A stretch of DNA of 64,000 bases from Escherichia phage phiAPCEc03 (NC_047754.1), one strand, 5' to 3'. Shown: positions 3,470-58,709, numbered from the stretch's first letter. A program made the numbers and translations. Notes: generated by a model from the letters alone, not told the origin.

Positions 3470-3477
3470 AAATTCAT

Positions 3478-3530: not shown

Positions 3531-3537
3531 AAACCAA

Positions 3538-3831: not shown

Positions 3832-4037
3832 TGAGGATTACTTTCACAGAAAAGATCATGAGTAACGGTGTTATGATCATTACCGCATGGGATGGTAATC
3901 AGTGGTGTAGTGTTTCAGGTATTAAGCCTGAAGAACAAACACTAGAAAATATCTCAAAGATTAAGCGAAGAATGGCAGAACGTGCACGACTTCCAGGTGC
4001 ACCTAGAAATGGCAAACGTTCTGCTGTAAAATGTTAA
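3831..4037 (+). CDS. hypothetical protein
   Basis: ORF MRITFTEK; start overlaps the upstream stop (TAATG). Confidence 0.45.
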   Translation: MRITFTEKIMSNGVMIITAWDGNQWCSVSGIKPEEQTLENISKIKRRMAERARLPGAPRNGKRSAVKC

Positions 4038-4038
4038 T

Positions 4039-4115
4039 GCTTCGGTAGCTTAGCGATCTAAAGCACTCGGCTGATAACCGAGAGATCGGGGGTTTAAATC
4101 CCTCCCGGAGTACCA
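4039..4115 (+). tRNA. tRNA-Ile (anticodon GAU)
   Basis: Acceptor GCTTCGG/CCGGAGT with G-U pairs, perfect anticodon arm CTCGG-CTGATAA-CCGAG, T-arm GGGGG-TTTAAAT-CCCTC, CCA encoded. Confidence 0.8.
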
Positions 4116-4211
4116 AATTTAGGAATTAAGACTATGCGTCCAGGAAAGTTTAAAAAAGCTAATTGGTCTAAAGAGTATAAAGAATACTTACTTAGTCTAA
4201 TAAAACATAAT

Positions 4212-4287
4212 AGTTAGTTGGCAGAGTGGTTATGCACCTCCTTCATACGGAGCGACTACAGTGGTTCAAATCCACTACTAACTACCA
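4212..4287 (+). tRNA. tRNA-Met/Ile2-type (anticodon CAU)
   Basis: Acceptor AGTTAGT/ACTAACT, anticodon loop TTCATAC, T-arm AGTGG-TTCAAAT-CCACT, CCA encoded. Confidence 0.7.
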
Positions 4288-28557: not shown

Positions 28558-30228
28558 ATGATTATTTCCGCAGAAAAACAAACCGTTATCCTGAAAATGG
28601 CCGCTGACTTTAATTTCTATGGTAAACGTCTGCGCGCTACTAAACTGGAAGTCTGCGACGATATATCAAAAGCGGTCTACGATACAACGAAGCATTCAAC
28701 CGCTATCTGCGACTGGCTGGAAGCAAATAAACCAGCTAAACCGAAAGCGGCAAAAGTAGCAAAAGCCATTAAAAACGATGAGCGCCCAGAAGCGGCGGGG
28801 ATTGTTTCTAGTACGGTTGAGCAATGGGAAGTAAAACAGGGTAAACGCTTTATTATTACGTCGATTCAGAATAATACTTTCCCACATAAAAACTTTTTAG
28901 CAAGTCTGGAAAAATTCGCTGAATATATCGGTGCTGATTTGCTTGTTTCTAAGTATATTTATAATAAAAACGGCTTCCAGAATGGAGAAGGTGCAGACGG
29001 TATCAAATACGATCCCGCATTTGATAAATATATTTGCAGCAAAAACGTGTTTTTAAATAACCGCCGTTTTGCTTTCATGGCTGAAATTAATGTTTTGCCT
29101 ACCGCAGACTATCCGCTTTCAGGATTTGCAGAAACTGCAACGGCTTTAAATATTGAAGGGCTGGCAATTGGTCACGCTAAAATTACCGCTGAAAGCGTGC
29201 CAGCTTTAAAAGGTGAAGTAGTGCGCCGTATGTATTCAACCGGAACGGCAACGCTCAAAAACTACATTCAGCAGAAAGCAGGACAAAAAGCCGAGGCGCT
29301 GCATAACTTCGGTGCGCTTATAGTTGAGTTCGACGACGACGGGGAATTTTTTGTTCGCCAGCTTGAAACAATGGACGAAAGCGGGGTGTTTTATGATCTG
29401 AACGTTTGCGCTACTCCTGCCGGATGCTATGAGACATCGGGGCATGTTTTAGGCTTGCAGTATGGCGATATTCACGCCGAAAAATTAGATGAGGAGTGCG
29501 CCGCCGCATCTTGGGGGCATGGTGATACTTATGGGCTAGTAGATATTCTTAAACCAAAATATCAGTTTGTGCATGACGTTCACGATTTTACATCCCGCAA
29601 TCATCATAACCGCGCATCCGGTGTATTCCTAGCTAAACAATACGCCGCCGGACGTGATAAAGTTCTGGATGATCTTATCGATACGGGGCGCGTGCTGGAA
29701 TCAATGGAACGTGATTTTAGTCAAACAATCATTGTTGAATCTAATCACGATTTGGCGCTATCCCGTTGGCTTGATGATCGTAATGCTAACATCAAAGACG
29801 ATCCAGCAAACGCCGAGTTATATCACCGCCTGAATGCTGCAATTTACGCGGCAATCGGTGAACACGACGAAACGTTTAACGTGCTAGATTATGCGTTGCG
29901 CAAGGTTGCAGGTTGTGAATTTAACGCCATTTTCCTGACCACTGATCAATCTTTCAAGATTGCAGGCATTGAATGCGGCGTACACGGTCACAATGGCATT
30001 AACGGCAGTCGTGGCAATCCTAAACAATTTAAAAAATTGGGCAAGTTAAACACGGGGCATACCCATACCGCCAGCATTTATGGCGGCGTATATACCGCTG
30101 GCGTTGCTGGTAGTCTGGATATGGGTTACAACGTTGGCGCGTCAAGCTGGACGCAAACGCATTTAATTACCTATGCAAATGGTCAACGCACTTTGATTGA
30201 CTTTAAAAACGGTAAATTCTTTGCATAA
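28558..30228 (+). CDS. A1: A1-like pre-early protein, metallophosphoesterase-family nuclease
   Basis: 556 aa; calcineurin-like motifs GDIH, SNHD, GVHGHNG and GHTHT in canonical order; size matches T5 A1. Confidence 0.7.
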   Translation: MIISAEKQTVILKMAADFNFYGKRLRATKLEVCDDISKAVYDTTKHSTAICDWLEANKPAKPKAAKVAKAIKNDERPEAAGIVSSTVEQWEVKQGKRFIITSIQNNTFPHKNFLASLEKFAEYIGADLLVSKYIYNKNGFQNGEGADGIKYDPAFDKYICSKNVFLNNRRFAFMAEINVLPTADYPLSGFAETATALNIEGLAIGHAKITAESVPALKGEVVRRMYSTGTATLKNYIQQKAGQKAEALHNFGALIVEFDDDGEFFVRQLETMDESGVFYDLNVCATPAGCYETSGHVLGLQYGDIHAEKLDEECAAASWGHGDTYGLVDILKPKYQFVHDVHDFTSRNHHNRASGVFLAKQYAAGRDKVLDDLIDTGRVLESMERDFSQTIIVESNHDLALSRWLDDRNANIKDDPANAELYHRLNAAIYAAIGEHDETFNVLDYALRKVAGCEFNAIFLTTDQSFKIAGIECGVHGHNGINGSRGNPKQFKKLGKLNTGHTHTASIYGGVYTAGVAGSLDMGYNVGASSWTQTHLITYANGQRTLIDFKNGKFFA

Positions 30229-30973: not shown

Positions 30974-31053
30974 TAGTTAATTTATTATTACCCGCTTATA
31001 AATAGCGGGTAATGCTGAAATAACTAAATCCCTTTAATGGAGAACGTAACAAA

Positions 31054-31788
31054 ATGAATCAAGTTAAAACGAATATTACCCGTAATTTCCCGCATATTTC
31101 CCGCGTCATGATTTGGGATCTGGACGGCACTATCATTAATTCTTTCCATCGTGTAGCGCTTTGCTTTGATAGTGAGGGCAATTTAGATTTAAATAAGTAT
31201 AAAAATGAAGCCTGCAAACATCATTTAATAATGCAAGATACTTTATTGCCATTAGTTGAATACATGCGCCAGTGCATGAATGACGCAAATACTTTAAACA
31301 TTATTTGCACCGCTCGACTAATGAGCAAGTCGGACTATTATTATTTGCGCAAACAAGGCTTGCGCGGTCGTGGTAATAGTAATATCCGCGTGTTTTCCCG
31401 TGATACACTGCATAAATATTTTGAGGCTGATAAAGTTAGCGAAATATACCACAGCAAGGACGCAGTATATAAATCTTATTATTTTGAATTATTCAAACAA
31501 CTATACCCAAACGCTGATTTTACAATGATTGACGATCATAAAGGCGTACTATCAGCGGCGGCATCATACGGATTTAAAACGCTGGACGCGCAAGCCGTTA
31601 ACGATATTCTATCAATCGGCGTGACATTGATAGGTGAAACCTTTATTGATGAATCCCTCGATGATGATAATGATTATCAATTCCTAGCTGACCGTTTAAA
31701 ATTATGCTGGGAAGGTATGACCGAGGAAGAACGCGCAGAATATAGTTGCAGCCCGCAACAATATATTGAGAAATTAAAAGTTGCGTAA
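31054..31788 (+). CDS. dmp: HAD-family 5-prime-deoxyribonucleotidase
   Basis: 244 aa with HAD motif I (WDLDGTI) near the N-terminus; size and position match T5 dmp. Confidence 0.6.
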   Translation: MNQVKTNITRNFPHISRVMIWDLDGTIINSFHRVALCFDSEGNLDLNKYKNEACKHHLIMQDTLLPLVEYMRQCMNDANTLNIICTARLMSKSDYYYLRKQGLRGRGNSNIRVFSRDTLHKYFEADKVSEIYHSKDAVYKSYYFELFKQLYPNADFTMIDDHKGVLSAAASYGFKTLDAQAVNDILSIGVTLIGETFIDESLDDDNDYQFLADRLKLCWEGMTEEERAEYSCSPQQYIEKLKVA

Positions 31789-31963
31789 TAATTAAAGTTG
31801 AAATAGTTTCATCCTGCAATTAAAATGGTTGCAGGATGAAACAGTTACCCTGCTAATAGTAACGGGGGTGGCGGTTAGCAGACTAAGTATTTCCGCCGGA
31901 GGCAGTGAGCACATCTTCATGTGTAATCTTAGGAAATTTGGCAAAAAGGTTAATTAGCGCTAA

Positions 31964-32461
31964 TTAATTATGGTTTGCAAACTCACCGTGGTAATGCTCC
32001 CTGGCTTTTCTAAGTTCTTTTTCAGCCTGCTCAAGAGTTTTAAAAGTTCCTATGGTAATTCTATTACCATTTACACGTAGTTTTGCTTCGAACTTTCCCT
32101 CCCCGCGTTTATATACTCCCTTAACCCCTGTAGACTCATTCTTCCATCCCGAAGAGTTTTTTCCATTCTCTGCATTTGTTGCTTTACGTAAGTTATTCCA
32201 CCTATTGTTGAAGGGGTCTTGATCTTTGTGATCAATGAGAAATTCACCTGGGTCTTCTCCTGTCATGTATAGATACGCTACCCGATGGGCCTTATATAAC
32301 CCATTATTACCCATTGATAGGGATATTCCTGAACTATTTCTACTACCTGCTGGTTTACCTTTACGACTCCCTGAATTCCAAGTAAATATACCTGCCTCTG
32401 GATCATAGTCATATTTTTTCTTATATTCTTCTAATGATAGAAGAGGTTTATGATTTGCCAT
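31964..32461 (-). CDS. HNH homing endonuclease with AP2-like domain
   Basis: Core AHRVAYLY...IDHKD...NNRWNNL, C-terminal GVYKRGEGKFEAKLRV; paralog of 16419-16955. Confidence 0.6.
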   Translation of the reverse strand: MANHKPLLSLEEYKKKYDYDPEAGIFTWNSGSRKGKPAGSRNSSGISLSMGNNGLYKAHRVAYLYMTGEDPGEFLIDHKDQDPFNNRWNNLRKATNAENGKNSSGWKNESTGVKGVYKRGEGKFEAKLRVNGNRITIGTFKTLEQAEKELRKAREHYHGEFANHN

Positions 32462-32666
32462 TTATCTTGAATCTCCTCCGAGAACTTCTTGAGCCATCAT
32501 TCCACTCCCGCTCAAACTCCGCACGTTTCTCTTCAAACTTCCGCTCCCTTTCCGCAATCTCCCGCGATACTTCCGCAATATATTTACGATGGCTGTCGAT
32601 AGCCGCAGTCATTCCGAAAATTCCCGCAAGTATCCCGATAATAAAAGCAATTATAATACTAAACAT
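32448..32666 (-). CDS. small membrane protein
   Basis: 72 aa, N-terminal transmembrane helix then charged tail. Confidence 0.45.
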   Translation of the reverse strand: MFSIIIAFIIGILAGIFGMTAAIDSHRKYIAEVSREIAERERKFEEKRAEFEREWNDGSRSSRRRFKINGKS

Positions 32667-32853
32667 CTAATTCCCTCTCAATTTGCAGAATACGGGTACT
32701 ATCACAACGTTGCAGTTCTACTAATTTTTCTATAGCAAATTGTTGCTGCTTTACCTGGGCCTCTAGAGTTTTTAGGCGAACATACGCGTTATAAGAAACA
32801 ATGAAAGTTGCCCAGACTAGTATTACTATTAGTGTAGCTACTACTTCCATCAT
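32659..32853 (-). CDS. small membrane protein
   Basis: 64 aa, N-terminal transmembrane helix. Confidence 0.45.
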   Translation of the reverse strand: MMEVVATLIVILVWATFIVSYNAYVRLKTLEAQVKQQQFAIEKLVELQRCDSTRILQIERELDV

Positions 32854-33261
32854 TTACGTTTCTCCAGTAATAAAATTTCAACTCTAGCCAAGTGATTATC
32901 TAAAATACATTGTCCGATAATAACAACCCCTAGTAATGCAATAATTACCCATTCCATTAAATCCACCCCGCCATAGCTGCTAACCAAAAACCTACGAAAA
33001 TAAAGAATAGGATAGTTCCGAACCCAAAACTATTTATCCAACTCTCATACACCTCTCCGCGTCTATTCTTTCTTTTGTTTGACATATCTTTCGTGCTCCC
33101 ATAAATGTGATATTTAAAATATTTTATAGTTTGTGTATAACCGACCGTGCTTGTGAACTCCTAGAAGGACTCCTATTTTTCTTACCTAGTGGTTTCTGCC
33201 AATATACCATCCAAGAAATAAAAAATTTAGTTTACTTGGATGTCTTTTTGTTTTATACTAA

Positions 33262-33528
33262 TTACAGGTAATTAGATTGCTCTAGTTTAAATTTACAATC
33301 ACCATATTTAAGGTCAAACTGACTGAGATCCCACCACCCAAATTTAGTACGGAGCTGTACTACTGGAAAGCGATCTCCCTTAATACGAACTTTTTGAACC
33401 TTGAGACCGTAATGTTCTTCTCCCGCACCACCAAAAGATTTTACAAATCCCGTACAAAATGGTTTGGGAGCAGGTGCACAACCAGATAACATAACTACGG
33501 CAACTAGTGCAATTACAAACTTTTTCAT
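33262..33528 (-). CDS. llp: lipoprotein, Llp-like (receptor-blocking lytic conversion lipoprotein)
   Basis: Signal peptide with lipobox LSGC; divergent from the adjacent receptor-binding protein gene as in T5 llp/oad. Confidence 0.6.
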   Translation of the reverse strand: MKKFVIALVAVVMLSGCAPAPKPFCTGFVKSFGGAGEEHYGLKVQKVRIKGDRFPVVQLRTKFGWWDLSQFDLKYGDCKFKLEQSNYL

Positions 33529-33613
33529 ATTTATCTCTCCATTTCTAATTTATGAATCTATTATAGCAAAATAGAGGGATGAAAGCAAATACATTTTTAT
33601 AATAGGAGATTAT

Positions 33614-35371
33614 ATGGGTTTTTTCGCTGGAAAGTATAGCGATGGTAAGACCGTACTATCTTTAAATACTGAATCTGGGGGTGACATTAATCGTCACTAT
33701 AGTCCAAATAATAATAGTATTTTTCATAGTGATATGCCATTTGTCCTAGTTGATGGTACTTACGAGGCTGGGTTAGGTGATGCCGGAAATGGGTTTTTCG
33801 TATGTCAGATGCCTCCTGATATAGTAAATATTAAATCTAATGATCCTGGTAGAGTTATACTAACTGCTATTGAAATTAACGGCACTCACAGAGCTTTTCT
33901 TAATGGTACTCAGAGTAAGGTTGGTCAAACTATAGTTGCCACTCAAGCTGATCCCTTTAGATCTTTTGCTAGTGTTTCTCAAACTAGTGGATTTGCATTT
34001 GGTAATAGTCTAGCATCTGGAACTTATAATTATAATTCATCGATAGGGCACGAAGAATCTATCTCTAGGAGTGGCACAGGGGGTACTACATTACATAGTA
34101 CCTACCATGGGATAGTTAGGCCCGGTGCGGGAGCTCCTGTAGGTGTTACTGTTGCAGAAGCTTTTGCACAATTAGGGTTTCCTACTAACAGTAGCACAGT
34201 ACCTGTAGATGGGAATAACCCGTACTATTGGGATCCTGGATGGATGTCGCCTCTAGGAGCAGCACATAGAGGGCATGATTGGTTTTATGTTTGCAATTCT
34301 AATATACGTGGGTACGGTGGGGTTAGGCAAGGGCTCCCAGGTAATGTAAATACTATGTACCACGACGGCGGGAACAGATTTGTTTGTAGGGGATCTACTA
34401 CTAATCTAGCTAACCAGTCGGGTGACTCTACAATACTACAGGATTGGTATAATATAACTCCTACTAAGGTTATTTGGTATGTTCTTAACTTAAGGTACTC
34501 AAATGGCGGTATGAGTATTTCCGGCAATCCCTTTACTGGTTCTGATATTCTTATATCTCCTTCTAATTTCATAATTAAAGGGGTAAGTCTCCCGAATACT
34601 GGATATAAATTTATAAATCAGAATGCTTTTGGTAACCTAGGTTACCGTCCTGATATGGAGTATATAGGGAATAACGCAGCGTATACTGGGGTTTTTGGGG
34701 ATACCACGGCAAGGTGTGAACTTGTAGGGTCTAGTAATGGAGGATTATGGTCTCCTGTAGACTATGGTGGAGCTAAATCACAGATTAGCATTTATAGGTT
34801 CGGAGTAGGTAAACAGTGGTATGTAAACTCTAACGATAATACTATTGGTAACGAGCATGGAGTTGTTTGGGGACCATCAGCAGTTCCACTGCGACTTTTT
34901 GGTGGAAATGTAGGTAGTTCTTATATGGGAGATGATATTACTCCTAGCTACCCAGGAACGGGTGATAGATACGTTGGTTTATCAACTATTGGGCTAGGTA
35001 TACCAGGCGGAAATGCTACAGTAATTCTTACTACTGAAGTTATATCAGGTAATCTTAATTGTGCGGGTGTTCCAGCTAATACATGGAATAACGGTGTGTT
35101 TCAAGTGCAAGGAAGAAGAGCATATAGCTATAGCGGCGGGGATGCAATATTCCACCAGATTTTAACGCTACCTGTGGGCTATCTAGTACCTTTTCATACT
35201 ACATCTGCTTTTAGATATACACCTAACAATGCTCTAAGTAGAAACAGTTTTATATATACAGTTAAAAATCTAGGAAATGGAAATGTGGAGTTAGGGGTAG
35301 TTATGCACGTGAGTTTGGGTAGTGCAGTTTTCCTACCTAGATTAAGAGTAACAGTTCAACGCCTTACCTAA
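33614..35371 (+). CDS. receptor-binding tail protein (pb5/Hrs-like)
   Basis: 585-aa Gly/Asn-rich protein adjacent and divergent to llp; call by synteny. Confidence 0.55.
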
Positions 35372-35381
35372 AGGAGGAAAT

Positions 35382-35864
35382 ATGGCAAATGATGTATTAG
35401 TACCAGATCTTATGTCCCCTGAAGGGATGGATGTGATTGAAGCTTATTTACAGTGCGGCAGCGATGTGCCTTCTGCCGCACGTAGTCTTGGAATGTCCGA
35501 AATTGCTTTCCGAGATATTATGAATCGTAGTGAAGTTAAGAACTACTTAAATGATATTTTTATGGAAAGTGGATTCCGTAACAGGGATCGTTTGTTTGGT
35601 GTTCTAGATGAAGTTATTAAACGTAAACTAGAGGAACTGGAAGAAACTGGCATGGGTTCTGACCAGGATATTATGGATATTCTCTGGAAAGCACACAAGA
35701 TGAAGATGGAAGAGATGAAAATGATGGTAGAGTTAGAAAAAGCTAAAGCTGCCGTTCGAGCTCCTGCTAATCAGACCAATATCCAGAATAACATTATTGC
35801 TGGAGCTGGGGATCAAAACTACATGGACTTAATTACTTCCCTGGCTACTGGAGGTAAGAAATAA
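35382..35864 (+). CDS. putative terminase small subunit
   Basis: 160 aa, immediately upstream of and abutting the large terminase gene. Confidence 0.4.
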
Positions 35865-37180
35865 TGGAAGTATCAAGACCCTACGTTAACACAGTAGATG
35901 TTATTGATTTCGGAATAGACAAACGTTTCTTTCGTTTACCTGTTTCAGGAATACTAGCACAAGAAGGTATTACACCTAATGGTCCTCAAATAGCGATTAT
36001 CAATGCGCTAGAAGACCCTAGACATCGTTTTGTAACGGCGTGTGTATCGCGCCGTGTGGGCAAGTCCTTTATAGCATATACACTTGGATTCCTAAAATTG
36101 CTGGAACCCAATGTGAAGGTACTAGTAGTTGCTCCTAACTACTCACTGGCCAACATCGGATGGTCTCAGATTCGTGGTCTTATTAAGAAGTATGGCCTAC
36201 AAACTGAACGTGAGAACGCTAAAGATAAAGAGATTGAGTTAGCTAATGGTTCTCTGTTTAAACTAGCTTCCGCGGCTCAGGCTGACTCCGCAGTTGGACG
36301 TTCATATGATTTTATCATTTTCGATGAGGCGGCAATTTCCGATGTGGGTGGTGATGCCTTTAGGGTTCAGTTACGTCCTACTCTAGATAAACCTAATTCT
36401 AAAGCTCTATTTATTTCCACCCCTCGTGGAGGTAACTGGTTTAAAGAGTTTTACGCCTATGGATTTGATGATACGTTACCTAACTGGGTGTCTATTCATG
36501 GTACATACCGTGATAACCCTCGTGCTGACCTGAATGACATTGAGGAAGCACGTCGTACAGTTAGTAAAAACTACTTCCGCCAGGAATACGAGGCCGACTT
36601 CTCTGTATTCGAAGGCCAGATCTTTGATACCTTTAATGCTATCGATCATGTTAAAGACCTCAAAGGTATGCGTCACTTCTTTAAAGATGATGAAGCATTC
36701 GAAACATTGCTTGGTATTGACGTTGGTTATCGTGATCCTACAGCAGTTCTTACTATTAAGTACCACTATGATACAGATACCTACTATGTATTAGAAGAGT
36801 ACCAGCAGGCAGAGAAAACTACAGCGCAACATGCTGCGTATATTCAGCACTGTATAGATCGTTATAACGTAGATCGTATCTTCGTTGACTCCGCGGCTGC
36901 CCAGTTCCGTCAGGACTTAGCTTATGAACATGAAATTGCATCAGCTCCAGCTAAAAAATCTGTCCTAGACGGTCTAGCATGCTTGCAAGCGCTATTCCAG
37001 CAAGGCAAGATTATTGTAGATGCTTCATGTTCCTCATTAATCCATGCGTTGCAGAACTATAAATGGGACTTCCAAGAAGGTGAAGAAAAATTATCACGTG
37101 AAAAACCACGTCATGATGCTAACTCTCACCTCTGTGATGCGCTGCGCTATGGAATTTACTCTATTTCCCGTGGTAAATAA
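35864..37180 (+). CDS. terminase large subunit
   Basis: 438 aa; Walker A VSRRVGKS and Walker B DFIIFDEAA. Confidence 0.8.
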   Translation: MEVSRPYVNTVDVIDFGIDKRFFRLPVSGILAQEGITPNGPQIAIINALEDPRHRFVTACVSRRVGKSFIAYTLGFLKLLEPNVKVLVVAPNYSLANIGWSQIRGLIKKYGLQTERENAKDKEIELANGSLFKLASAAQADSAVGRSYDFIIFDEAAISDVGGDAFRVQLRPTLDKPNSKALFISTPRGGNWFKEFYAYGFDDTLPNWVSIHGTYRDNPRADLNDIEEARRTVSKNYFRQEYEADFSVFEGQIFDTFNAIDHVKDLKGMRHFFKDDEAFETLLGIDVGYRDPTAVLTIKYHYDTDTYYVLEEYQQAEKTTAQHAAYIQHCIDRYNVDRIFVDSAAAQFRQDLAYEHEIASAPAKKSVLDGLACLQALFQQGKIIVDASCSSLIHALQNYKWDFQEGEEKLSREKPRHDANSHLCDALRYGIYSISRGK

Positions 37181-37294
37181 ATAAATATAGGAAGGGATAC
37201 TACTCAGTTGGTATCCCATTCCTGCATTTTAAAATCCCCTTTACAAATTCGATACGATTATGTATACTATATTCATACAGTTGAGGAGAACACT

Positions 37295-37732
37295 ATGGCA
37301 AGCAATATAAAATATAAACGCGATGCTATATCCCTTATGAGAGACGGAATAAAAAGTCAATATAAAAAAGACTCTCAATGTGCTATCTGCGGTTGTGCTG
37401 AAGAATTAGAGCTTCATCATTACCATACGGTGTCTCTACTAGTTAAAAAATTTGCTAAAGAACTCCAATTGGATTTCACTGACGAAGAAACAGTCCTTTC
37501 AAATAGGACGGCATTCTATGATCGATATAGGCATGAGCTAGTAGAAGACACTGTTACCCTTTGTGTACACCATCACCAATTATTACATAAGGTTTACACA
37601 AAAGAACCTCCTTTATTTTCTGCTAATAAGCAAAAAGTGTGGGTTCAAAAGCAGAAAGACAAATTACAGAATCCTCAAGAAAAGACACAAGTCAAGACTG
37701 AAACAAAATCAGGATTCGCAAGGTTCTTATAA
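37295..37732 (+). CDS. HNH endonuclease (terminase-associated type)
   Basis: CAICGC...HHYH...CVHHHQLLH motifs; GAGGAG RBS before ATG at 37295. Confidence 0.6.
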   Translation: MASNIKYKRDAISLMRDGIKSQYKKDSQCAICGCAEELELHHYHTVSLLVKKFAKELQLDFTDEETVLSNRTAFYDRYRHELVEDTVTLCVHHHQLLHKVYTKEPPLFSANKQKVWVQKQKDKLQNPQEKTQVKTETKSGFARFL

Positions 37733-50930: not shown

Positions 50931-53776
50931 AAAAAATACTAGATAGTGCTAGAAACTACTTAAAAAATAATAGCAGAATAAAAACTGCTAGTCTAATTTC
51001 CCTAGAATTACCTGGCTCTACTGGTACTAGTACTGCTTTTATTTATTTAACTGATTATTTTAGAGATGTACTATATAATGGTATTTTGTACCAGGCCGGT
51101 AAGGTTAAGTCCATTAGCACACATAAACAAAATAGAGATTTATCTATTGGCAGTCTATCTTTTACTATTACAGGTACAGCGCAGGATGAAGTACTAAAAC
51201 TAGTGCAAAATGGTGTATCCTTCTTAGATAGAACCGTATCAATTCATCAAGCAATTATTACTGAAGATGGTTCTATTCTACCAGTAGACCCCGATACAAA
51301 TGGTCCTTTACTATATTTTAGAGGGAGGATTACTGGAGGGGGTATTAAAGATAACATTAGTACCTCTGGAGTAGGAACCTCTACAATTACCTGGAATTGT
51401 TCTAACCAATTCTATGACTTTGATAGAGTTAATGGTAGATATACTGATGACGCTTCCCATAGGGGGCTTGAAGTTGTAGCTGGACAGTTAGTACCATCTA
51501 ATGGTGCTAAAAGACCAGAGTATCAAGAAGACTACGGCTTCTTCCACTCTAATAAAAGTATCTCTATCCTAGCAAAATATCAGGTTCAAGAAGAAAGATA
51601 CAAGCTAAAATCAAAGAAAAAATTATTTGGTTTATCTAGAAGCTACAGCCTTAAAAAATACTATGAAACTGTCACTAAGGAAGTGGATATAGATTTTAAC
51701 CTTGCTGCTAAATACATACCGGTGGTTTATGGAGTTCAAAAAATTCCTGGAATACCCATTTTTGCTGATACAGAACTACACAATCCCAACATAGTTTATG
51801 TCGTATACGCCTTTGCTGAGGGGGAGATTGATGGTTTTCTTGATTTCTCCTTTGGTGATAACCCTATGATCTGCGTAGATGCTAATGACAGCTCCGCTAG
51901 AACCTGCTTTGGTACTAAAAAAATAGCAGGAGATACAATGCAGAGGATAGCATCTGGAACCTCTTCTAGTAGTCCATCCGTCCATGGTCAAGAGTATAAG
52001 TATAATGATGGAAATGGTGACATAAGGATTTGGACTTATCACGGAAAATCTGATCAAACAGCCTCTGAAGTACTAGTAGATATAGCTAAAGAACGTGGAT
52101 TCTACCTTCAGAATATGAATGGCAATGGGCCGGAGTACTGGGATGCTAGATATAAGCTACTAGATACTGCATACGCAGTGGTGCGCTTCACTATTAATGA
52201 AAATAGGACTGAGATTCCAGAAGTTAGTGCTGAAATTCAAGGTAAAAAAGTAAAAGTCTATCATTCTGATGGTAGAGTAACTGCTAATAGTACTAGTTTA
52301 AATGGTATTTGGCAAACACTTGATTACTTAACCTCTGATAGATATGGCGCTAATATTACCATTGATCAGTTCCCCCTTCAGCAATTAATACAGGAAGCAT
52401 CTATTTTAGATATTATAGATGAATCCTATCAGGTATCTTGGCAGCCATATTGGAGATACGTTGGGTGGACTGATCCACTAGCAGAAAATAGACAAATAGT
52501 ACAAATGAATACTATTCTGGATACATCTGAATCAGTATTTAAAAATGTGCAAGGTTTGTTAGAGTCCTATGGTGGGGCTATTAACAATTTATCTGGCCAG
52601 TATAGGGTTACTGTAGAAAAATACTCTAATACTCCCTTAGAGATTAATTTTCTAGATACTTACGGTGATTTGGAGCTATCAGATACTACTGGTAGAAATA
52701 AATTCAACTCAGTTCAAGCATCTATCGTAGATCCCGCCCTTAGCTGGAAAACTAATTCTATTACATTCTATAATTCCAAGTATAAGGAACAGGACAAGAA
52801 CCTAGATAAAAAATTACAACTATCTTTTGCTAATATTACTAACTACTATACTGCAAGAAGTTTTGCGGATAGAGAACTTAAGAAATCCAGATACTCAAGA
52901 ACACTTTCTTTCTCATTACCATACCAGTTCATAGGGATTGAACCCAATGATGCTATTGCATTCACGTATGACCGTTACGGGTGGAACAGAAAGTATTTCC
53001 TAGTTGATGAGGTTGAAAACTCTAGAGAGGGTAAGATAAATGTTACCTTACAGGAGTATGGAGAGGATGTATTCATCAACTCTGAGCAGGTTGATAATAG
53101 CGGTAATGATATTCCTGATATTAGTAACAATGTCCTTCCTCCTAGAGACTTTAAATATACTCCTACTCCTGGCGGTTTAGTAGGCTCTATAGGTAAAAAT
53201 GGTGAGTTATCCTGGCTTCCGAGTCTAACCAATAATGTAGTTTACTACTCTATTGTGCACTCAGGCCATGCCGAACCTTACATAATACAACAGTTAGAGA
53301 CCAATCCTAACGAACGTATGATCCAAGAAATAATTGGGGAACCAGCAGGTCTGGCTATATTTGAGATAAGGGCAGTAGATATTAATGGTAGAAGAAGTTC
53401 CCCGGTGACTCTGTCTATAGAACTTAACTCTGCTAAAAACCTTAGTGTAGTATCTAATTTTAGGGTAACTAATACGGCCTCTGGGGATGTAACTGAGTTT
53501 GTCGGCCCAGATGTAAAACTAGCTTGGGATAGGATACCGGAAGAAGATATAATAGAGAGTATATTTTATACCCTTGAAATACACGATTCACAAAATAGGA
53601 TGTTAAGAAGTGTACGTATTGAAAATCAGTATACTTATGACTATTTATTAACGTATAATAAGGCAGATTTTGCTCTCCAGAACAGCGGTGCTCTAGGTAT
53701 AAATAGAAAATTGTATTTTCGTATTAGGGCTGAGGGGAATGATGGAGAACAGTCTGTGGAGTGGGCATCCATTTAA
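50927..53776 (+). CDS. baseplate hub protein (pb3-like)
   Basis: 949 aa, same as T5 pb3. Confidence 0.75.
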   Translation: MKKILDSARNYLKNNSRIKTASLISLELPGSTGTSTAFIYLTDYFRDVLYNGILYQAGKVKSISTHKQNRDLSIGSLSFTITGTAQDEVLKLVQNGVSFLDRTVSIHQAIITEDGSILPVDPDTNGPLLYFRGRITGGGIKDNISTSGVGTSTITWNCSNQFYDFDRVNGRYTDDASHRGLEVVAGQLVPSNGAKRPEYQEDYGFFHSNKSISILAKYQVQEERYKLKSKKKLFGLSRSYSLKKYYETVTKEVDIDFNLAAKYIPVVYGVQKIPGIPIFADTELHNPNIVYVVYAFAEGEIDGFLDFSFGDNPMICVDANDSSARTCFGTKKIAGDTMQRIASGTSSSSPSVHGQEYKYNDGNGDIRIWTYHGKSDQTASEVLVDIAKERGFYLQNMNGNGPEYWDARYKLLDTAYAVVRFTINENRTEIPEVSAEIQGKKVKVYHSDGRVTANSTSLNGIWQTLDYLTSDRYGANITIDQFPLQQLIQEASILDIIDESYQVSWQPYWRYVGWTDPLAENRQIVQMNTILDTSESVFKNVQGLLESYGGAINNLSGQYRVTVEKYSNTPLEINFLDTYGDLELSDTTGRNKFNSVQASIVDPALSWKTNSITFYNSKYKEQDKNLDKKLQLSFANITNYYTARSFADRELKKSRYSRTLSFSLPYQFIGIEPNDAIAFTYDRYGWNRKYFLVDEVENSREGKINVTLQEYGEDVFINSEQVDNSGNDIPDISNNVLPPRDFKYTPTPGGLVGSIGKNGELSWLPSLTNNVVYYSIVHSGHAEPYIIQQLETNPNERMIQEIIGEPAGLAIFEIRAVDINGRRSSPVTLSIELNSAKNLSVVSNFRVTNTASGDVTEFVGPDVKLAWDRIPEEDIIESIFYTLEIHDSQNRMLRSVRIENQYTYDYLLTYNKADFALQNSGALGINRKLYFRIRAEGNDGEQSVEWASI

Positions 53777-55833
53777 TGATTTCAAATAATGCACCAGCCA
53801 AAATGGTCTTAAATAGTATAATGACTGGATATACTTTGGCTTATGTCCAGCACTCCATTTATACTGATTATGATGTTATTGGTAGATCTTTTTGGTTAAA
53901 AATAGGAGAAAGTATAGATAGACGTGATTACACCGGTATAGATACTTTCTTCGTAATGATTAATAATCTAACCCCCTCTACCTCCTATGAGATTCAGGGG
54001 GCTTTCTATGACTCAATTATTGACTCAGAGTTACTGGAAGCTAAGATTGGTATCAACCTCTCTAATGAAACTAATTTTAGAACAAAGGAAAAGCCAATAA
54101 TTGTTGCAGCAAGATCTGAATCAGAACCCGTCGACGTTGGTGTTGGTGCTCCAATAGTTGTTGTAGAGACTGCTGGTGAAGCTAGTTACTGCACTATTGA
54201 ATTAAAAAGTACTGCATCAGAAGACAGTGAATGGGTTAAGTATTATATAGGTGCGCTGGGACCTACTATCAAATTTGGTGGTGTTCCTGTTGGAGACTAT
54301 AAGATCAGAATATCTGGTCAAGTTACGATGCCAGATGGTGTTACAGTTGACTCATCTGGCTATTATGAATATCCTAGCGTTTTCACTGTAGCTTATAATT
54401 TCGTACCACCTACTGCACCTACTAACATTGCCTTTAAAACTGCACGAATCGCAGACGGTAAGGAACGATATGATGTTAGAATAGAATGGGACTGGGAACG
54501 TGGTGCTGGTGCTAATGTCCGTGAATTTCTGGTTACTTATATAAACTCTGAAGAATACGCTAAGACTGGTTGGGCTAAAGCTCAAAAGATAAACGTTGGG
54601 GCTGCTAGAGCTGCAACAATTATATCATTCCCATGGAAAGTTGAGCATACTTTTAAGGTATCATCAATTGCCTGGGGACCAAATAAGCAAGATATAACAG
54701 AATCAGCTCCTGTAACATTTATATTGAATGAAGATACTCCTCTAGACAACAGCTTTGTCAATGAGACGGGTATTGATGTTAATTATGCCTTTATTAAGGG
54801 CAGCATGAAAGATGGAGAAATCTGGAGACAGACATTCTTAATCGATGCAGCTACTGGTGCTATTAACATTGGTCTGCTAGATGAAGAAGGAAAAGCACCT
54901 ATTTCTTTTGACCCTATAAACCGTGTTGTTAACGTTGATGGTAAAGTAATTACTAGAGATATTAATGCTGCGAACTTTATCATGACTAACTTATCTGGTA
55001 AGGATAACCCAGCAATTTACACTCAAGGTAAATCTTGGGGGGATAATAACTCCGGTATTTGGATGGGTATGGATAATACCTCTGCCAAAGCTAAGTTAGA
55101 CATTGGTAATGCCACACAGTGGATTCGTTATGATGGTGATGTGCTACGTATTTCTAGTGGAGTAGTTATTGGAACTCCTAATGGCGATGTAGATCTTGGT
55201 ACTGGTATGCAAGGTAAGCAAACAGTATTTGTTTATAAGTTAGCAACATCTCTACCTGCTAAACCACTAGAACAAGATTATCCGCCTCCTGGTTGGTCAA
55301 AAACTCCACCTAACCGTACAGATATGACACAAAATATCTATGCCACTACAGGTACACTTGATCCCGTTACTAACAAACTTCTTGAAGGTACTAGCTGGTC
55401 TGATGTAGTTCAGTGGAGTGGTACTGAGGGTACTATAGGACATGATGGACAACGTGGTCCTGGGATGTACTCCTTAGGTATTCCTGGTCTTGGAGGCTGG
55501 GATGATGGACAAGCTAATGCCTTCTTCCAGAATAACTTTGGTAGTCCTCCTGTTAGATATGATGTATTAACCGAATTTAATAGTAATGCTCCACAATCAG
55601 CATTTACCAGACAATGGAATGGATCTGGGTGGGTGAACCCTGCAATGGTTCTTCATGGGAACATGATTGTTAATGGAACAGTGACGGCAGATAAAATTGT
55701 AGCAGGAAATGCTTTCTTGTCTCAAATTGGTGTTAATATCATTTATGATAGAAATGCTGCGTTATCCTGGAATCCTGAGGCATACTACAAGATGAAGATA
55801 GACCTAAATAGTGGGTATATCCATATAAGGTAA
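53761..55833 (+). CDS. central tail fiber / baseplate protein (pb4-like)
   Basis: 690 aa, about T5 pb4 size. Confidence 0.7.
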   Translation: MGIHLMISNNAPAKMVLNSIMTGYTLAYVQHSIYTDYDVIGRSFWLKIGESIDRRDYTGIDTFFVMINNLTPSTSYEIQGAFYDSIIDSELLEAKIGINLSNETNFRTKEKPIIVAARSESEPVDVGVGAPIVVVETAGEASYCTIELKSTASEDSEWVKYYIGALGPTIKFGGVPVGDYKIRISGQVTMPDGVTVDSSGYYEYPSVFTVAYNFVPPTAPTNIAFKTARIADGKERYDVRIEWDWERGAGANVREFLVTYINSEEYAKTGWAKAQKINVGAARAATIISFPWKVEHTFKVSSIAWGPNKQDITESAPVTFILNEDTPLDNSFVNETGIDVNYAFIKGSMKDGEIWRQTFLIDAATGAINIGLLDEEGKAPISFDPINRVVNVDGKVITRDINAANFIMTNLSGKDNPAIYTQGKSWGDNNSGIWMGMDNTSAKAKLDIGNATQWIRYDGDVLRISSGVVIGTPNGDVDLGTGMQGKQTVFVYKLATSLPAKPLEQDYPPPGWSKTPPNRTDMTQNIYATTGTLDPVTNKLLEGTSWSDVVQWSGTEGTIGHDGQRGPGMYSLGIPGLGGWDDGQANAFFQNNFGSPPVRYDVLTEFNSNAPQSAFTRQWNGSGWVNPAMVLHGNMIVNGTVTADKIVAGNAFLSQIGVNIIYDRNAALSWNPEAYYKMKIDLNSGYIHIR

Positions 55834-55839: not shown

Positions 55840-56262
55840 ATGAGTACTGAAAATAGAGTTATAGACTTAGTAATAGATGAGAAAGTACCTTATGGTCTAA
55901 TGATGCAATTCTTAGATGTTGATGATAGTACTTATCCCCCTACAAACACCCCTGTTAACTTAACAGGGTATTCTCTAAAGGGTACTATAAAGAATAGCCT
56001 TGATGAGAATGCGGAAACTTTGGCATCTTTTACTACTAAAATTATTGATGCTGCTCAAGGTGCTATAGCTATAAGTTTACCTGTAGAGGCGGTAGATAAT
56101 ATTGGTGAAAAAGCCACCAAAGAGAGAGATAAGTATAACCCTCGCCAACGTTTTGCAGGATACTATGATATAATTATGACACGAGATGTCATAGGATCAG
56201 CTATTAGCTCTTTTCGTATAATGGAGGGTAAAGTATTTATCAGTGATGGGGTAACTAGATAA
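55840..56262 (+). CDS. collar protein (p132-like)
   Basis: 140 aa, immediately upstream of the tail fiber genes. Confidence 0.55.
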
Positions 56263-58709
56263 TGGCAATAACTACTAAGATTATTGTACAACAAATATTA
56301 AATATTGATGATACTAAAGCTACTGCTAGTAAATTTCCTAGATACACAGTAACTCTTGGAAACTCTATTAGCTCTATTACTGCTATAGAGTTAGTATCCT
56401 CTATAGAGGCCGCTGCTAAATCTGCTGCGGCTGCAAAAGATTCTGAAATAGCTGCTAAAACCTCAGAACTTAATGCTAAGAACTCTGAACAGGAAGCTGC
56501 TATTTCTGCTGGAGCTTCAGAAGCTTCTGCTAATCAGTCTGCTACCTCTGCTACTCAGTCCGCAGCGTCAGCCAATAAGTCTGCAGAATCCGCTGCCGCA
56601 GCTAAAATATCCGAGACTAATGCGAAGACTAGTGAAACTAATGCGAAGACTAGTGAAACTAACGCGAAGACTAGTGAAACTAATGCTGACGCATCAGCTG
56701 CTGCTGCAAAAATTAGTGAGACTAATGCAAAGGCAAGTGAGACTAATGCAGCTCAATCAGCTGCTGATGCAAAACTTAGCGAGGGTAACGCAAAGGTCAG
56801 TGAGACTAATGCAGCTCAATCAGCAGCTGATTCTAGCGGTTTTAGGAATGAGGCGGAAATATTTTCTGGGCAAGCTGCTGCATCGGCATCTGCGGCAAAA
56901 ATCTCTGAAACCAATGCAAAAACCTCGGAAACAAAAGCTAAGGCTAGTGAAACTAATGCTGCGGGATCTGCAACTTCTGCTAGCCAATCTGTAGCTACTA
57001 TTCAAGGACTTAAATCAGATGTCGAACAGTTAAAATCTGATACCCAGGACATTAAAAATAGTGCTATAACAGAGACAACAGCTTTAAAAGCGGATGTCGA
57101 ACAGTTAAAATCTGATACCCAGGCCATTAAAAATAGCGCTATAACAGAGACAACAGCTTTAAAAGCGGATGTTGAGCAACTAAAAACAGATACACAAGGT
57201 ATTAAGGATAGCGCGGTATCTGAGACAACAACTTTAAAAGATCAAGCTGCTGCTTCTGCTGCACAAGCAGGTAATAGTGCTGTTGAGGCCGGGCAACAAG
57301 CTAGCAATGCTGCTGGTAGTGCAAATAGCTCTAAAGTAGAAGCAGACCGTGCAAAGGCAGAAGCAGACCGTGCGGAAGTTGCAGCTAATAGGGATCCTGA
57401 TCTTCAACCATTCCCTGACGTATGGATTCCATTTAATGACTCGCTTGATATGCTCGCAGGTTATTCACCCGGCTATAAGAAAATAACAGTTGGTGAAGAT
57501 GTTATTACAATGCCTTCTGATAAGGTTGTTAGTTTCACGCGTGCGTCAAATGCAACATACATAAATAAGCATGGTGAATTTTGTATTGCTAATATCGATG
57601 AACCCAGATTTGAAAAGCAAGGACTCTTGATTGAAGGCCAGAGGACAAATCACATTACTTTCAGTAATGACCCCGCTTCACTAAATACAGATAAGCACCG
57701 TAGTGATGTTACTTATAATGTTGATAAGTATGGTTTTGCATATGCAACGGCTACAGCTAACGAAAATTCACATGGTGAGTACCCTTCATTATTTTATTGT
57801 AAAACCGTGAATGCAATCAACTGTCAGCAAAATGAATATGTTTCTTTATCTATACGAGTAAAGGCAAACTCGGATATCTATATCACCCCACAATTTTATT
57901 TAGTAGGTAAGGATGGAGGTCTTATTCTCGGTGCTAGATCTTTCATAAGTTGCGAAACCGGCGAAGTTTCTTCTGTAGTAGAAGGGAGGGGGACTATAGC
58001 ACATAGAATATATAGAGAAGACAACGGATGGTTGAAAGTTGAAGCTATGTGTAAATTTGTAGAACGTGGAGGTAGTTCTATTGGATCTGTAAATTATTGT
58101 CGGAATAATGATCAACCTTCGCAAGTTGGGGATACAATATCATTTTGTACTCCGCAATTTGAAAAGGGTTTTTGTGCATCCTCCTTCATTATTACGGGAA
58201 GCACTCCTGCAACAAGGGCTCTGGATTATGTTACTATACCTGCAAGAAATAATTTCTCAGGGACGAATATTTCATTCCTTGCTGAGGTAAGTATCAACTG
58301 GAATAGCTTTCAATTAGATAATATATACCCAATGATAGTGGATAACAACCACTACTTCGTAAGAGGAAAAGCATTTGTTGCGGAATTTGACAGAACCTCC
58401 GTTACACCTTACACGTATGTGGTAACTGAGGATGGATCAACTATTCTGTCCAGAGGTTATTCATTTGAAAAACAATTTTCTCCACATGTATTTGGTTTTA
58501 TTCTCAGTGGCGATGTAGAGGTCACCTCGTTTGTTAATGGTAATAGTGGTGAGACCTCACACGGTTCTACCTGGAAAGGAACGGACTCGGACGCACTAGT
58601 AGAAATAGGCGGTAGACTTTCAGATTCAACTAAATTGTATGGTCATATTCGTAACCTTAGAATATGGAATAGAGTATTAACAGATAGTCAAATGCGGGAG
58701 AAAGTTTAA
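56262..58709 (+). CDS. L-shaped tail fiber proximal subunit (LtfA-like) with tandem coding repeats
   Basis: 815 aa; Ala-rich SETNAKT-type repeats and three 27-aa repeats (DVEQLKSDTQ.IKNSAITETTALKA). Confidence 0.6.
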   Translation: MAITTKIIVQQILNIDDTKATASKFPRYTVTLGNSISSITAIELVSSIEAAAKSAAAAKDSEIAAKTSELNAKNSEQEAAISAGASEASANQSATSATQSAASANKSAESAAAAKISETNAKTSETNAKTSETNAKTSETNADASAAAAKISETNAKASETNAAQSAADAKLSEGNAKVSETNAAQSAADSSGFRNEAEIFSGQAAASASAAKISETNAKTSETKAKASETNAAGSATSASQSVATIQGLKSDVEQLKSDTQDIKNSAITETTALKADVEQLKSDTQAIKNSAITETTALKADVEQLKTDTQGIKDSAVSETTTLKDQAAASAAQAGNSAVEAGQQASNAAGSANSSKVEADRAKAEADRAEVAANRDPDLQPFPDVWIPFNDSLDMLAGYSPGYKKITVGEDVITMPSDKVVSFTRASNATYINKHGEFCIANIDEPRFEKQGLLIEGQRTNHITFSNDPASLNTDKHRSDVTYNVDKYGFAYATATANENSHGEYPSLFYCKTVNAINCQQNEYVSLSIRVKANSDIYITPQFYLVGKDGGLILGARSFISCETGEVSSVVEGRGTIAHRIYREDNGWLKVEAMCKFVERGGSSIGSVNYCRNNDQPSQVGDTISFCTPQFEKGFCASSFIITGSTPATRALDYVTIPARNNFSGTNISFLAEVSINWNSFQLDNIYPMIVDNNHYFVRGKAFVAEFDRTSVTPYTYVVTEDGSTILSRGYSFEKQFSPHVFGFILSGDVEVTSFVNGNSGETSHGSTWKGTDSDALVEIGGRLSDSTKLYGHIRNLRIWNRVLTDSQMREKV

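Follow-up and report, generated by a model that had tools for sequence, protein, structure and literature searches.

The host-recognition modules of T5-like phages have been described in several systems. The oad (pb5)-llp module of T5, with FhuA as its receptor, is said to go back to Decker in 1994, and the hrs-llp module of BF23 was reportedly described by Mondigler et al. in 2006. Phages DT57C and DT571/2 were shown with btuB mutants to depend on BtuB, and expression of llp from DT57C cut plating by a factor of more than 100 for BF23 and for the DT phages while T5 was unaffected (Golomidova et al. 2016, PMC4728585). The same paper cites an exclusion of more than 10^6-fold for the Llp of BF23, and it names pb4 as the carrier of pb5 (PMC4728585). 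In BASEL, receptors were established by plating on knockout mutants; three receptor-binding protein (RBP) clusters were predictive of the receptor, BtuB is listed as the receptor of Bas31 (DaisyDussoix), and fepA dependence was found in none of the phages.

We analyzed a window of 64,000 nucleotides from Escherichia phage phiAPCEc03 (NC_047754.1), which derives from a Tequintavirus (T5-like) genome. The module of interest occupies the right-hand end of the genome's unique region, beside the terminal repeat, whose boundary was mapped via homology to T5 at approximately position 31911. A PHROG search returned a phage protein family match for every ORF of the locus (E from 1e-24 to 1e-274). The features are as follows.

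31964-32461, minus strand: HNH homing endonuclease gene, 165 aa (PF13392, phrog_99)
32448-32666, minus strand: orfD, 72 aa, T5.162 homologue (phrog_6447)
32659-32853, minus strand: orfC, 64 aa, T5.161 homologue (phrog_5851)
32850-32957, minus strand: orfB, 35 aa from ATG, T5.160 homologue (phrog_6369)
32957-33085, minus strand: orfA, 42 aa, T5.159 homologue (phrog_8596)
33262-33528, minus strand: llp, 88-aa precursor (LPAM_1 lipobox, phrog_1119)
33529-33613, no strand assigned: divergent intergenic control region between llp and the RBP gene (sequence reading and promoter conservation)
33614-35371, plus strand: RBP gene, pb5/Hrs homologue, 585 aa (phrog_4815, T5 pb5 in PDB)
35382-35864: terS, directly downstream of the RBP gene
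35864-37180: terL, after terS
53761-55833, plus strand: straight central fibre protein, pb4 homologue, listed for context (phrog_3890 'straight fibre tail protein', E=0)

An earlier note on this DNA, made from the sequence alone, had proposed a divergent pair of lipoprotein and RBP genes from a T5-like phage, and homology to the T5, BF23 and DT571/2 modules bears this out. All of the ORFs that it named (RBP, lipoprotein and two small ORFs) are present at the coordinates it gave. A third small membrane ORF, translated by hand as 44 codons from about 32951, is also real; however, it runs from 32957 to 33085 with 42 codons plus a stop and does not reach 32951. Two further genes had been missed, namely a fourth small ORF (32850-32957) and the HNH gene (31964-32461). 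Overall, the locus is an already described BF23/DT57C-type host-recognition module of Tequintavirus, with nothing new in it. We are highly confident in the whole reading, in which a probable BtuB-binding RBP and a receptor-blocking Llp are accompanied by four membrane-protein genes that go with any type of receptor and by an HNH insertion.

By both homology and gene position, the RBP belongs to the pb5/Hrs family of Markadamsvirinae tail-tip proteins. It matched phrog_4815 across residues 1-585 (E=1.3e-274). Its gene is followed directly by terS/terL, as it is in all relatives, and diverges from llp on the other strand, a layout common to T5, BF23 and DT571/2. The earlier note had given a length of 640 aa for T5 pb5, which is correct, and had proposed a comparison with pb5, Hrs and FepA-binding proteins. 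That comparison relates the RBP over its whole length to T5 pb5 in PDB entries 8b14/8a8c (E=1e-50) and to Hrs of BF23 (68.2% identity), as against 32.1% identity to the FepA-type RBP of S124 and 33.4% to T5 pb5. The closest relatives were found in VSe12 (99.3%), Cit2 (97.8%) and Bas31 (96.9%), followed by DT571/2 (73.7%). Pfam and NCBIfam searches with the RBP and the small ORFs gave no match, the lipobox and HNH domains being the only ones in the locus. An identity matrix was used to place the RBP among receptor types, with S124 representing the FepA type and T5 and S131 the FhuA type; the BtuB cluster is that of BF23, DT57C, SPC35, EPS7, S132, phiR2-01 and BASEL phages Bas26-33. The RBP falls within the BtuB cluster of 585-595-aa proteins, whose members are 56-99% identical to it, and apart from the FhuA and FepA clusters (32-34% identical to T5, S131 and S124). 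vB_SenS_S124 (OK108607) was considered as the FepA phage S124 and rejected, because this BtuB-type isolate shares no more than the name and is unrelated.

The divergence from the classical BtuB binders (68-74% identical) is located mostly at residues ~161-280, where identity is 25-52%; at residues 161-200 and 241-280, identity to BF23 drops to 25-45%. Approximately, the divergent segments are residues 107-121, 161-280 and 529-539. At the positions aligning with loops L1, L2 and L4 of T5 pb5 the window allele resembles DT571/2, and its L4-equivalent loop is 6-7 residues shorter than that of BF23.

The lipoprotein was examined in the same manner. Its precursor of 88 aa begins with the signal peptide MKKFVIALVAVVMLSG, which is followed by the lipid-anchor Cys17 of an L-S-G-C lipobox (LPAM_1 in Pfam, E=5.6e-5, above the gathering score), leaving a mature form of 72 aa (Cys17-Leu88). 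Llp is identical to BF23 Llp at 87 of 88 residues, and the sole difference is within the signal peptide. BF23, DT571/2 (DT57C), Bas31, Cit2 and ESCO40 all have the same mature protein as the window, with differences from BF23 and DT571/2 confined to the signal peptide. Judged by its sequence, the Llp of the window is a BF23-type receptor-blocking (superinfection-exclusion) lipoprotein. Because the mature sequence is identical to that of the experimentally demonstrated protein, exclusion of BF23-type phages but not of T5 would be expected of it.

Relationships beyond this group are more distant. Searching a large protein database with Llp yielded 11 clusters, from T5-like phages only, which makes for a shallow alignment. 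Llp matched phrog_1119, 'Cor superinfection exclusion protein', over its full length (E=3.8e-26), as did T5 Llp (E=1.1e-19). The Cor lipoproteins of T1-like and phi80-type phages, which share this PHROG, are likewise small and located in the outer membrane, and they bring about phage exclusion through inactivation of a TonB-dependent transporter, classically FhuA; in contrast to Llp, they belong to other phage families and another genomic context (downstream of gpJ). tblastn with Llp also matched exclusion proteins from small siphoviruses at ~32-33% identity (E ~1e-3 to 1e-2). Like the window Llp, T5 Llp has a lipobox and two further cysteines; however, it is 77 aa long and ~27% identical in a forced alignment, and profile and fold comparisons do not link the two beyond the signal peptide. 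Neither a sequence search with Llp nor a 12-sequence profile search of PDB retrieved T5 Llp, and the hhalign alignment between the Llp profile and T5 Llp was limited to the signal peptide and the first cysteines. Foldseek comparison of an AF2 model of mature Llp (pLDDT 83) against PDB gave no match at E<=0.001; T5 Llp was not among the matches, and the best were Tudor/chromo-like barrels with E>0.4. AF2 has been noted to mispredict free T5 Llp (PMC9586334). Cys1, Cys9 and Cys62 of mature Llp are invariant, and Cys9/Cys62 are comparable with Cys11-Cys58 of T5 Llp, which form a disulphide (PMC9586334).

Among the described systems, BF23 (reference genome OR083247) has the same gene order as the window, namely terL, terS, RBP, divergent llp, four small ORFs and terminal repeat. 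Its llp promoter differs from that of the window at only 3 bases, and its receptor is BtuB. In contrast to the window, its RBP has 595 aa instead of 585 and is 68% identical, the L4-equivalent loop is longer, and there is no HNH cassette after the T5.162 homologue. The closest experimentally characterized RBP outside the window's own allele group is that of DT57C/DT571/2 (586 aa). These phages share with the window similar predicted receptor-contact loops, the identical mature Llp and two lateral tail fibre genes, although their RBP diverges by ~26% in amino acid sequence and the HNH insertion is missing from the site. VSe12, Bas31, Cit2, chee24 and ESCO40 carry the same 585-aa RBP allele with few substitutions (97-99% identical). 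ESCO40 also has the HNH cassette and the rewritten C-terminus of orfD in common with the window, whereas Bas31 has an extra 51-aa ORF between its T5.159 and T5.160 homologues. T5 itself (van den Berg 2022, PMC9586334) has the same architecture, promoter elements and four downstream genes (T5.159-162), yet its RBP, homologous over the full length, is a FhuA binder of 640 aa with 33% identity to that of the window.

Since the RBP falls in the BtuB cluster, the 96.9%-identical RBP of Bas31 has been typed as BtuB-dependent and the mature Llp is identical to a BtuB-blocking Llp, we name BtuB, the vitamin B12 transporter, as the most likely receptor of the window RBP. The earlier note had suggested a receptor other than FhuA, for example BtuB or FepA, on the basis of the length of the protein. 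The BtuB part of this suggestion agrees with the cluster, Bas31 and Llp, whereas the FepA part does not hold, given the 32% identity to the S124 RBP and the unrelated S124 gene at the llp position. The host genotype recorded for JLBYU40, a pst-phoU deletion, is uninformative on the receptor.

Three other readings were weighed against BtuB. For Cit2, the RBP has been said to be 96.9% identical to the T5 RBP and to cluster with T5 (PMC12980165), which would make the RBP a FhuA binder like T5 pb5 and Llp a mismatched, BtuB-type passenger. However, direct BLASTP of the Cit2 RBP against pb5 of NC_005859 (640 aa) gave 30% identity, and this direct comparison contradicts the identity value on which the FhuA assignment published in 2026 for the Cit2 allele rests. 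Moreover, the window RBP is only 33% identical to those of T5 and S131 and has 585 rather than 640 aa, the Llp paired with it is of the BF23 type and not the 77-aa T5 type, and Bas31, with the same RBP allele, was typed as BtuB-dependent. A mismatched Llp would also leave progeny unprotected and hence be selected against, as argued in PMC4728585. We consider FhuA binding extremely improbable. Binding to FepA, as in phages H8 and S124, has in our view the lowest probability of all. The RBP is indeed the shorter one when compared with T5 pb5, and some T5-like phages do use FepA, but the S124 RBP has 637 aa and is 32% identical to that of the window, the product of the S124 gene at the llp position is an unrelated protein of 103 aa that lacks a lipobox (phrog_16810), and fepA-dependent T5-like phages are absent from BASEL.

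The 585-aa allele may also have drifted or recombined, so that it uses another or an additional receptor, or different BtuB contact loops than Hrs of BF23, with Llp still blocking BtuB. The low identity to BF23 at residues 161-200 and 241-280 (25-45%) would fit such a change, as would the variation of the L1/L2/L4-equivalent loops between alleles, the L4 equivalent being 6-7 residues shorter than in BF23, and recombination has been proposed to occur at a point between hrs and llp (PMC4728585). Nevertheless, Bas31, with the same allele, and DT57C, with similar loops, both require BtuB, and we regard this explanation as very unlikely. The contact geometry on BtuB may differ, which would leave the overall BtuB assignment unchanged.

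In the control region between the two genes, the llp promoter is conserved whatever the type of module. On the minus strand upstream of llp, an early sigma-70 promoter was read by eye, with a -35 element TTGCTT (33588-33583), a 17-nt spacer and a TGn-extended -10 element TATAAT (33565-33560), preceded by an A-tract. The -35, the -10 and the A-tract are invariant in BF23, DT571/2, Bas31, SPC35, S132, phiR2-01 and T5, and promoters are annotated at this position in the T5 and BF23 records. A generic promoter/terminator scan missed the llp promoter because TTGCTT fits just 3 of 6 consensus bases, and no convincing terminator emerged from it in the interval from llp to the small ORFs. Shine-Dalgarno sequences were read as GGAGAG for llp and TAGGAG for the RBP gene.

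With BtuB as the receptor, we predict that the RBP, carried by the straight fibre (pb4) at its tip, would bind outer-membrane BtuB irreversibly, which would lead to opening of the tail and ejection of the DNA. BtuB dependence is experimental for Bas31, whose RBP is 97% identical, and for DT57C/DT571/2, whose RBPs are 74% identical; binding by the window RBP is inferred. In the infected cell, llp would be transcribed divergently from the conserved, strong sigma-70 early promoter, and its precursor would undergo export and lipidation at Cys17. Under the +2 sorting rule, the destination of a lipoprotein is directed by its residue +2; in mature Llp this residue is Ala, and the inner leaflet of the outer membrane is therefore the expected location. 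There, Llp would bind BtuB and render it unusable by the RBP, so that superinfection would be prevented and progeny would be kept from being lost on cell debris. By analogy with the T5 Llp-FhuA structure, we infer that Llp would bind at the periplasmic face and close the extracellular loops allosterically.

Downstream of llp and on the same strand there are four small ORFs, not three, in the same order as T5.159-T5.162 and 85-93% identical to the T5 proteins, with PHROG matches of E from ~1e-24 to 1e-42. These genes are annotated in T5 as single-transmembrane proteins, and in many relatives too, including the ORF that was outside the feature list of the earlier note. orfA (phrog_8596, E=4.5e-32) combines a basic N-terminus with a transmembrane segment at its C-terminus; it is 93% identical to T5.159 and the BF23 copy and 65% to that of FepA-type S124, occurs in 446 phage records, and corresponds to 'orf1' of the 1994 T5 llp record X75922. 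orfB (phrog_6369, E=8.6e-24), whose start shares 1 nt with the stop of orfA, has an N-terminal transmembrane segment and is 83-91% identical in T5, BF23, DT571/2, S131 and Bas31. orfC (phrog_5851, E=2.3e-35) and orfD (phrog_6447, E=4.6e-42) each have an N-terminal transmembrane segment and a charged tail, which is helical in orfC. orfC is 86% identical to T5 and 39-42% to Epseptimavirus copies, with a conserved C-terminus (...ERELDV), and the T5 form of orfD has 81 aa. Each small ORF contains one hydrophobic 17-mer with a mean Kyte-Doolittle value of 2.2-2.8. The pN/pS ratios across seven phages were 0.17 for orfA, 0.16 for orfB, 0.28 for orfC and 0.27 for orfD, and these values indicate real genes under purifying selection. 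The four overlapping genes are probably translationally coupled; SD-like sequences and start/stop overlaps of 1, 4, 8 and 14 nt were read from the sequence.

The small ORFs were compared by local tblastn without masking, as masked tblastn of orfD was hampered by its low-complexity transmembrane segment. They were present, at least in part, in 13/13 loci of any receptor type (FhuA, BtuB, FepA). Conservation beside all three types of module shows that they are not receptor-specific, and the earlier proposal that they are further exclusion or lysis-timing factors is unsupported in a receptor-specific form. Their position directly downstream of llp on the same strand, the membrane proteins that they encode, the label 'receptor-blocking protein' given to the T5.159 homologue in some records and a weak match to an Rz-like spanin (E=0.067) could all be taken to favor such a role in the receptor module. 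However, the genes are nearly identical beside FhuA-, BtuB- and FepA-type modules, the spanin match is not significant, and the literature search gave no experimental basis for the labels; a search on T5.159-T5.162 and T5p157/158 found no papers. We therefore consider it unlikely that the small ORFs are additional superinfection-exclusion or lysis-timing factors of the receptor module. T4 Imm and Sp block DNA entry of superinfecting phages. That the four-gene cassette provides a second line of protection that works in the inner membrane or periplasm whatever the receptor (for example a DNA-entry block), or that it controls envelope integrity or lysis timing, is quite unlikely in our estimate. 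Our best guess, with low confidence, is that the small ORFs encode early inner-membrane accessory proteins with a receptor-independent role.

The final feature of the locus is the HNH gene (PF13392 HNH_3 in Pfam, E=1.7e-13; phrog_99, E=4.7e-57), which overlaps the 3' end of the 72-aa orfD. By local blastn, the window and ESCO40 both carry a cassette of ~508 bp (~31961-32468 in the window, between orfD and the boundary of the terminal repeat), which replaces ~40-60 bp of T5, BF23, DT571/2, Bas31 and S131; its absence from the latter is a presence/absence polymorphism among collinear relatives. The last 14 residues of the 81-aa T5.162 form are replaced in orfD by a new ending (…RRRFKINGKS), which is common to ESCO40. 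The T5.162 homologue has thus received an HNH homing endonuclease at its 3' end, and its C-terminus has been rewritten by this insertion. In line with the cassette, many megablast matches began only at query base 203.

In conclusion, the module, its receptor and its exclusion mechanism are already documented in BF23, DT57C and numerous sequenced relatives, with the RBP allele being 99% identical to deposited sequences; the discovery value of the module is small. The T5.159-162 cassette is a conserved, selected gene set that is cheap to test, and a second layer of protection, if true, would give a new function to genes that were annotated in 1994-2005 and have never been studied since. For the common VSe12/Bas31/Cit2-type RBP allele, the receptor prediction should be BtuB. 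Finally, the mature Llp is identical while the RBPs next to it are only 68-74% identical, which illustrates cleanly how recombination can take place within a functional module with receptor specificity kept.

Open reading frames (ORFs) were listed over window positions 31000-37500, and those of the module all matched phage protein families (E values of 1e-24 to 1e-274). Every feature named by the earlier note was present, with small corrections only: a third small membrane ORF that had been translated by hand does exist, but its actual extent is 32957-33085 (42 codons). A fourth small ORF (32850-32957) and an HNH gene (31964-32461) were absent from that note. The module consists of the following.

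33614-35371, +: receptor-binding protein (RBP), 585 aa
33262-33528, -: lipoprotein Llp, 88 aa; N-terminus MKKFVIALVAVVMLSG followed by C, a signal peptide plus lipobox (Pfam LPAM_1)
32957-33085, -: small ORF orfA, 42 codons
32850-32957, -: small ORF orfB, 35 aa from ATG
32659-32853, -: small ORF orfC, 64 aa
32448-32666, -: small ORF orfD, 72 aa
31964-32461, -: HNH endonuclease gene, 165 aa, overlapping the end of the 72-aa ORF

The RBP matched phrog_4815 over its full length (E=1.3e-274) and also the solved T5 pb5 (8b14, 8a8c; E=1e-50). A tblastn search of 50,697 phage records returned three tiers of identity: VSe12, JLBYU40, chee24, Cit2 and Bas31/DaisyDussoix at 95%-99.3%; DT571/2, SPC35, BF23, S132 and phiR2-01 at 55%-74%; and T5, S131 and Klebsiella phages at 27%-31%. 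When 14 RBPs were aligned locally, identity on the BtuB side was 96.9% (Bas31), 73.7% (DT571/2), 72.6% (SPC35), 69.5% (S132), 68.2% (BF23) and 55.9% (phiR2-01), and identities to T5 and the FepA-type S124 were 33.4% and 32.1%. The BASEL study, in which phage receptors were determined experimentally on knockout strains, described exactly three RBP clusters (BtuB, FepA and FhuA) from which the receptor is predictable; Bas31 was typed to BtuB, and no BASEL phage was dependent on fepA. The BtuB requirement of DT57C and DT571/2 has been shown with btuB mutants. Based upon the identity tiers, the BASEL clusters, the typing of Bas31 and these mutants, we assign BtuB as the probable receptor of the window RBP. 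The earlier note had proposed a T5-like receptor/exclusion module with a receptor other than FhuA; the module reading is supported, and the RBP clusters and the Bas31 and DT571/2 comparisons would narrow the receptor to BtuB. Divergence from the BF23 RBP is concentrated at residues 161-200 (25% identity) and 241-280 (45%). Loops L1, L2 and L4 of T5 pb5 insert into FhuA, and at the aligned positions the window RBP is closer to DT571/2 than to BF23; in the L4 equivalent it lacks a 6-7-residue insertion, as does DT571/2, unlike BF23.

A 2026 paper on phage Cit2 (PMC12980165) would favor another receptor. The RBP of this phage (OP745948; comparison locus L011:1294-3051) is 97.8% identical to the window RBP. 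The authors state 96.9% identity between the Cit2 and T5 RBPs, infer FhuA, and read the BtuB-type Llp as decoupling. However, direct BLASTP of the Cit2 RBP against the 640-aa pb5 of NC_005859 gave 30% identity. The FhuA inference for the Cit2-type allele therefore has no basis, and the decoupling of RBP and Llp vanishes with it. The allele common to Cit2 and the window belongs to the BtuB cluster.

The window Llp is 87/88 identical to that of BF23 and 98.9% identical to that of DT571/2, with the sole differences from both at signal-peptide position 11. Local alignments show no difference in the mature 72-aa protein among the window, BF23, DT571/2, Bas31, Cit2 and ESCO40. Golomidova et al. found that even leaky expression of cloned DT57C llp cut plating of BF23 and of their own DT phages >100-fold while T5 plating was unaffected, and they cite >10^6-fold for BF23 llp. 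Since the mature protein is identical, the exclusion function of DT57C/BF23 Llp should transfer directly to the window Llp. Both this protein and T5 Llp are full-length matches to phrog_1119 (Cor/Llp), and its invariant mature cysteines (Cys1, Cys9 and Cys62) parallel the lipid anchor and Cys11-Cys58 disulphide of T5 Llp. No further link between the two proteins emerged from searches of the PDB by sequence and by profile, from hhalign, or from Foldseek with an AF2 model of the window Llp (pLDDT 83). The solved T5 Llp-FhuA structure revealed a periplasmic jamming mechanism, which by analogy would be the best model for Llp-BtuB. Beside its FepA-type RBP, S124 (NC_048013; comparison locus L012:5219-5530) carries a gene annotated 'receptor blocking protein / T5 Llp-like'. 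The encoded 103-aa protein has neither signal peptide nor lipobox and belongs to a different family, phrog_16810. Should it act in exclusion, it would not do so as an Llp/Cor-type lipoprotein.

On the llp strand of the 85 bp that separate the RBP and llp genes, an A-tract is followed by TTGCTT (33588-33583) and, after a spacer of 17 nt, by a TG-extended TATAAT (33565-33560). The elements do not vary among BF23, DT571/2, Bas31, SPC35, S132, phiR2-01 and T5; they lie where promoters are annotated in T5 and BF23, and agree with the early llp expression reported in the literature. From the llp stop to orfA the spacer measures 176 bp (33086-33261, -); it contains promoter-like hexamers and an inverted repeat of 8 bp (CATCCAAG...CTTGGATG) whose loop is long and AT-rich. 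BF23 has an annotated promoter in the corresponding spacer, marked 'absent in T5'. Transcription of the small ORFs could either read through from llp or start at a promoter of their own.

The four small ORFs, orfA to orfD, are homologous to T5.159 (42 aa; 'orf1' of the 1994 T5 llp record X75922), T5.160 (35 aa), T5.161 (64 aa) and T5.162 (81 aa), each annotated in the T5 RefSeq with a single transmembrane domain. All four have a single 17-mer of strong hydrophobicity, and all have an SD-like sequence. Their pN/pS of 0.16-0.28 (pooled Nei-Gojobori) shows that they are genuine genes, and overlaps of 1, 4 and 8 nt between consecutive genes suggest translational coupling. By local tblastn, their order is the same beside FhuA-type (T5, S131), BtuB-type and FepA-type (S124) modules, and orfA is identical between T5 and BF23. 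The earlier note had raised three of them as possible exclusion or lysis-timing factors. All four fail to co-vary with the receptor module, which contradicts a role as receptor-specific exclusion factors; as candidates for extra exclusion or lysis factors they are hypothetical. A literature search found no functional reports on them, and the labels 'receptor-blocking protein', 'tail fiber' and 'tail assembly' that some records give them look like annotation noise. At its proximal end the cassette is variable: Bas31/DaisyDussoix has an extra 51-aa ORF (comparison locus L001:2188-2343) whose N-terminus resembles the T5.160 homologue, and BF23 (comparison locus L003:34033-34224) and JLBYU40 annotate a longer, 63-aa T5.159 homologue.

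An HNH cassette of ~508 bp (31961-32468) separates the T5.162 homologue from the terminal-repeat boundary. It is also found in ESCO40, whereas T5, BF23, DT571/2, Bas31 and S131 have 40-60 bp in its place. Upon its insertion the last 14 residues of orfD gave way to KINGKS, with a 14-nt overlap between the new orfD stop and the HNH start codon. An HNH endonuclease is also annotated under the whole-query megablast matches 8sent1748, 3sent1, VAH1, VEc33 and SSP1. Presence/absence polymorphism of this kind is typical of homing endonucleases in T5-like phages.

Megablast with the region and with the surrounding 24-kb stretch gave matches at 90-96% identity to hundreds of T5-like phages, mostly of the genus Tequintavirus (Demerecviridae, Markadamsvirinae). 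OR846838 (Listeria phage LM 4-11-1) and MG065692 (Campylobacter phage C13) carry the enterobacterial T5-like module at 92-97% identity and are probably contaminant or mislabelled public entries. The wider setting includes the following.

614-4287, +: cluster of eight tRNA genes (Ser x2, His, Gln x2, Thr, Ile, Met)
28558-30228: A1 DNA-transfer gene, upstream side; a terminal-repeat gene in T5 and BF23
31054-31788: deoxynucleotidase gene, upstream side; likewise a terminal-repeat gene in T5 and BF23
35382-35864: terS, downstream of the RBP gene
35864-37180: terL, downstream of terS
37208-37732, +: 174-aa ORF with TTG start and Cys/His motifs, between terL and the portal gene
56262-58709 and 58984-60726, +: two genes for lateral tail fibres (815 and 580 aa; phrog_1419 and phrog_6921)

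Homology to T5 maps the right terminal-repeat boundary to about window position 31911, which places the module at the unique region's right end, reversed relative to the T5 map. The tRNA cluster lies about 27 kb from this boundary, a spacing which implies that the sequence is an assembly in which both terminal repeats have been collapsed or permuted rather than laid out as at the virion ends. The 174-aa ORF, a weak HNH match (phrog_3497, phrog_8048), lies where T5 has its nicking endonuclease genes. The two tail fibre genes form the LtfA/LtfB arrangement known from branched fibres of the DT57C type; T5 and BF23 have a single ltf gene instead.

In conclusion, the window module is very probably the BF23/DT57C-type BtuB recognition and exclusion module of a T5-like phage, a kind of module already known. 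Downstream it has four small membrane-protein genes, as is usual, and a mobile HNH cassette.
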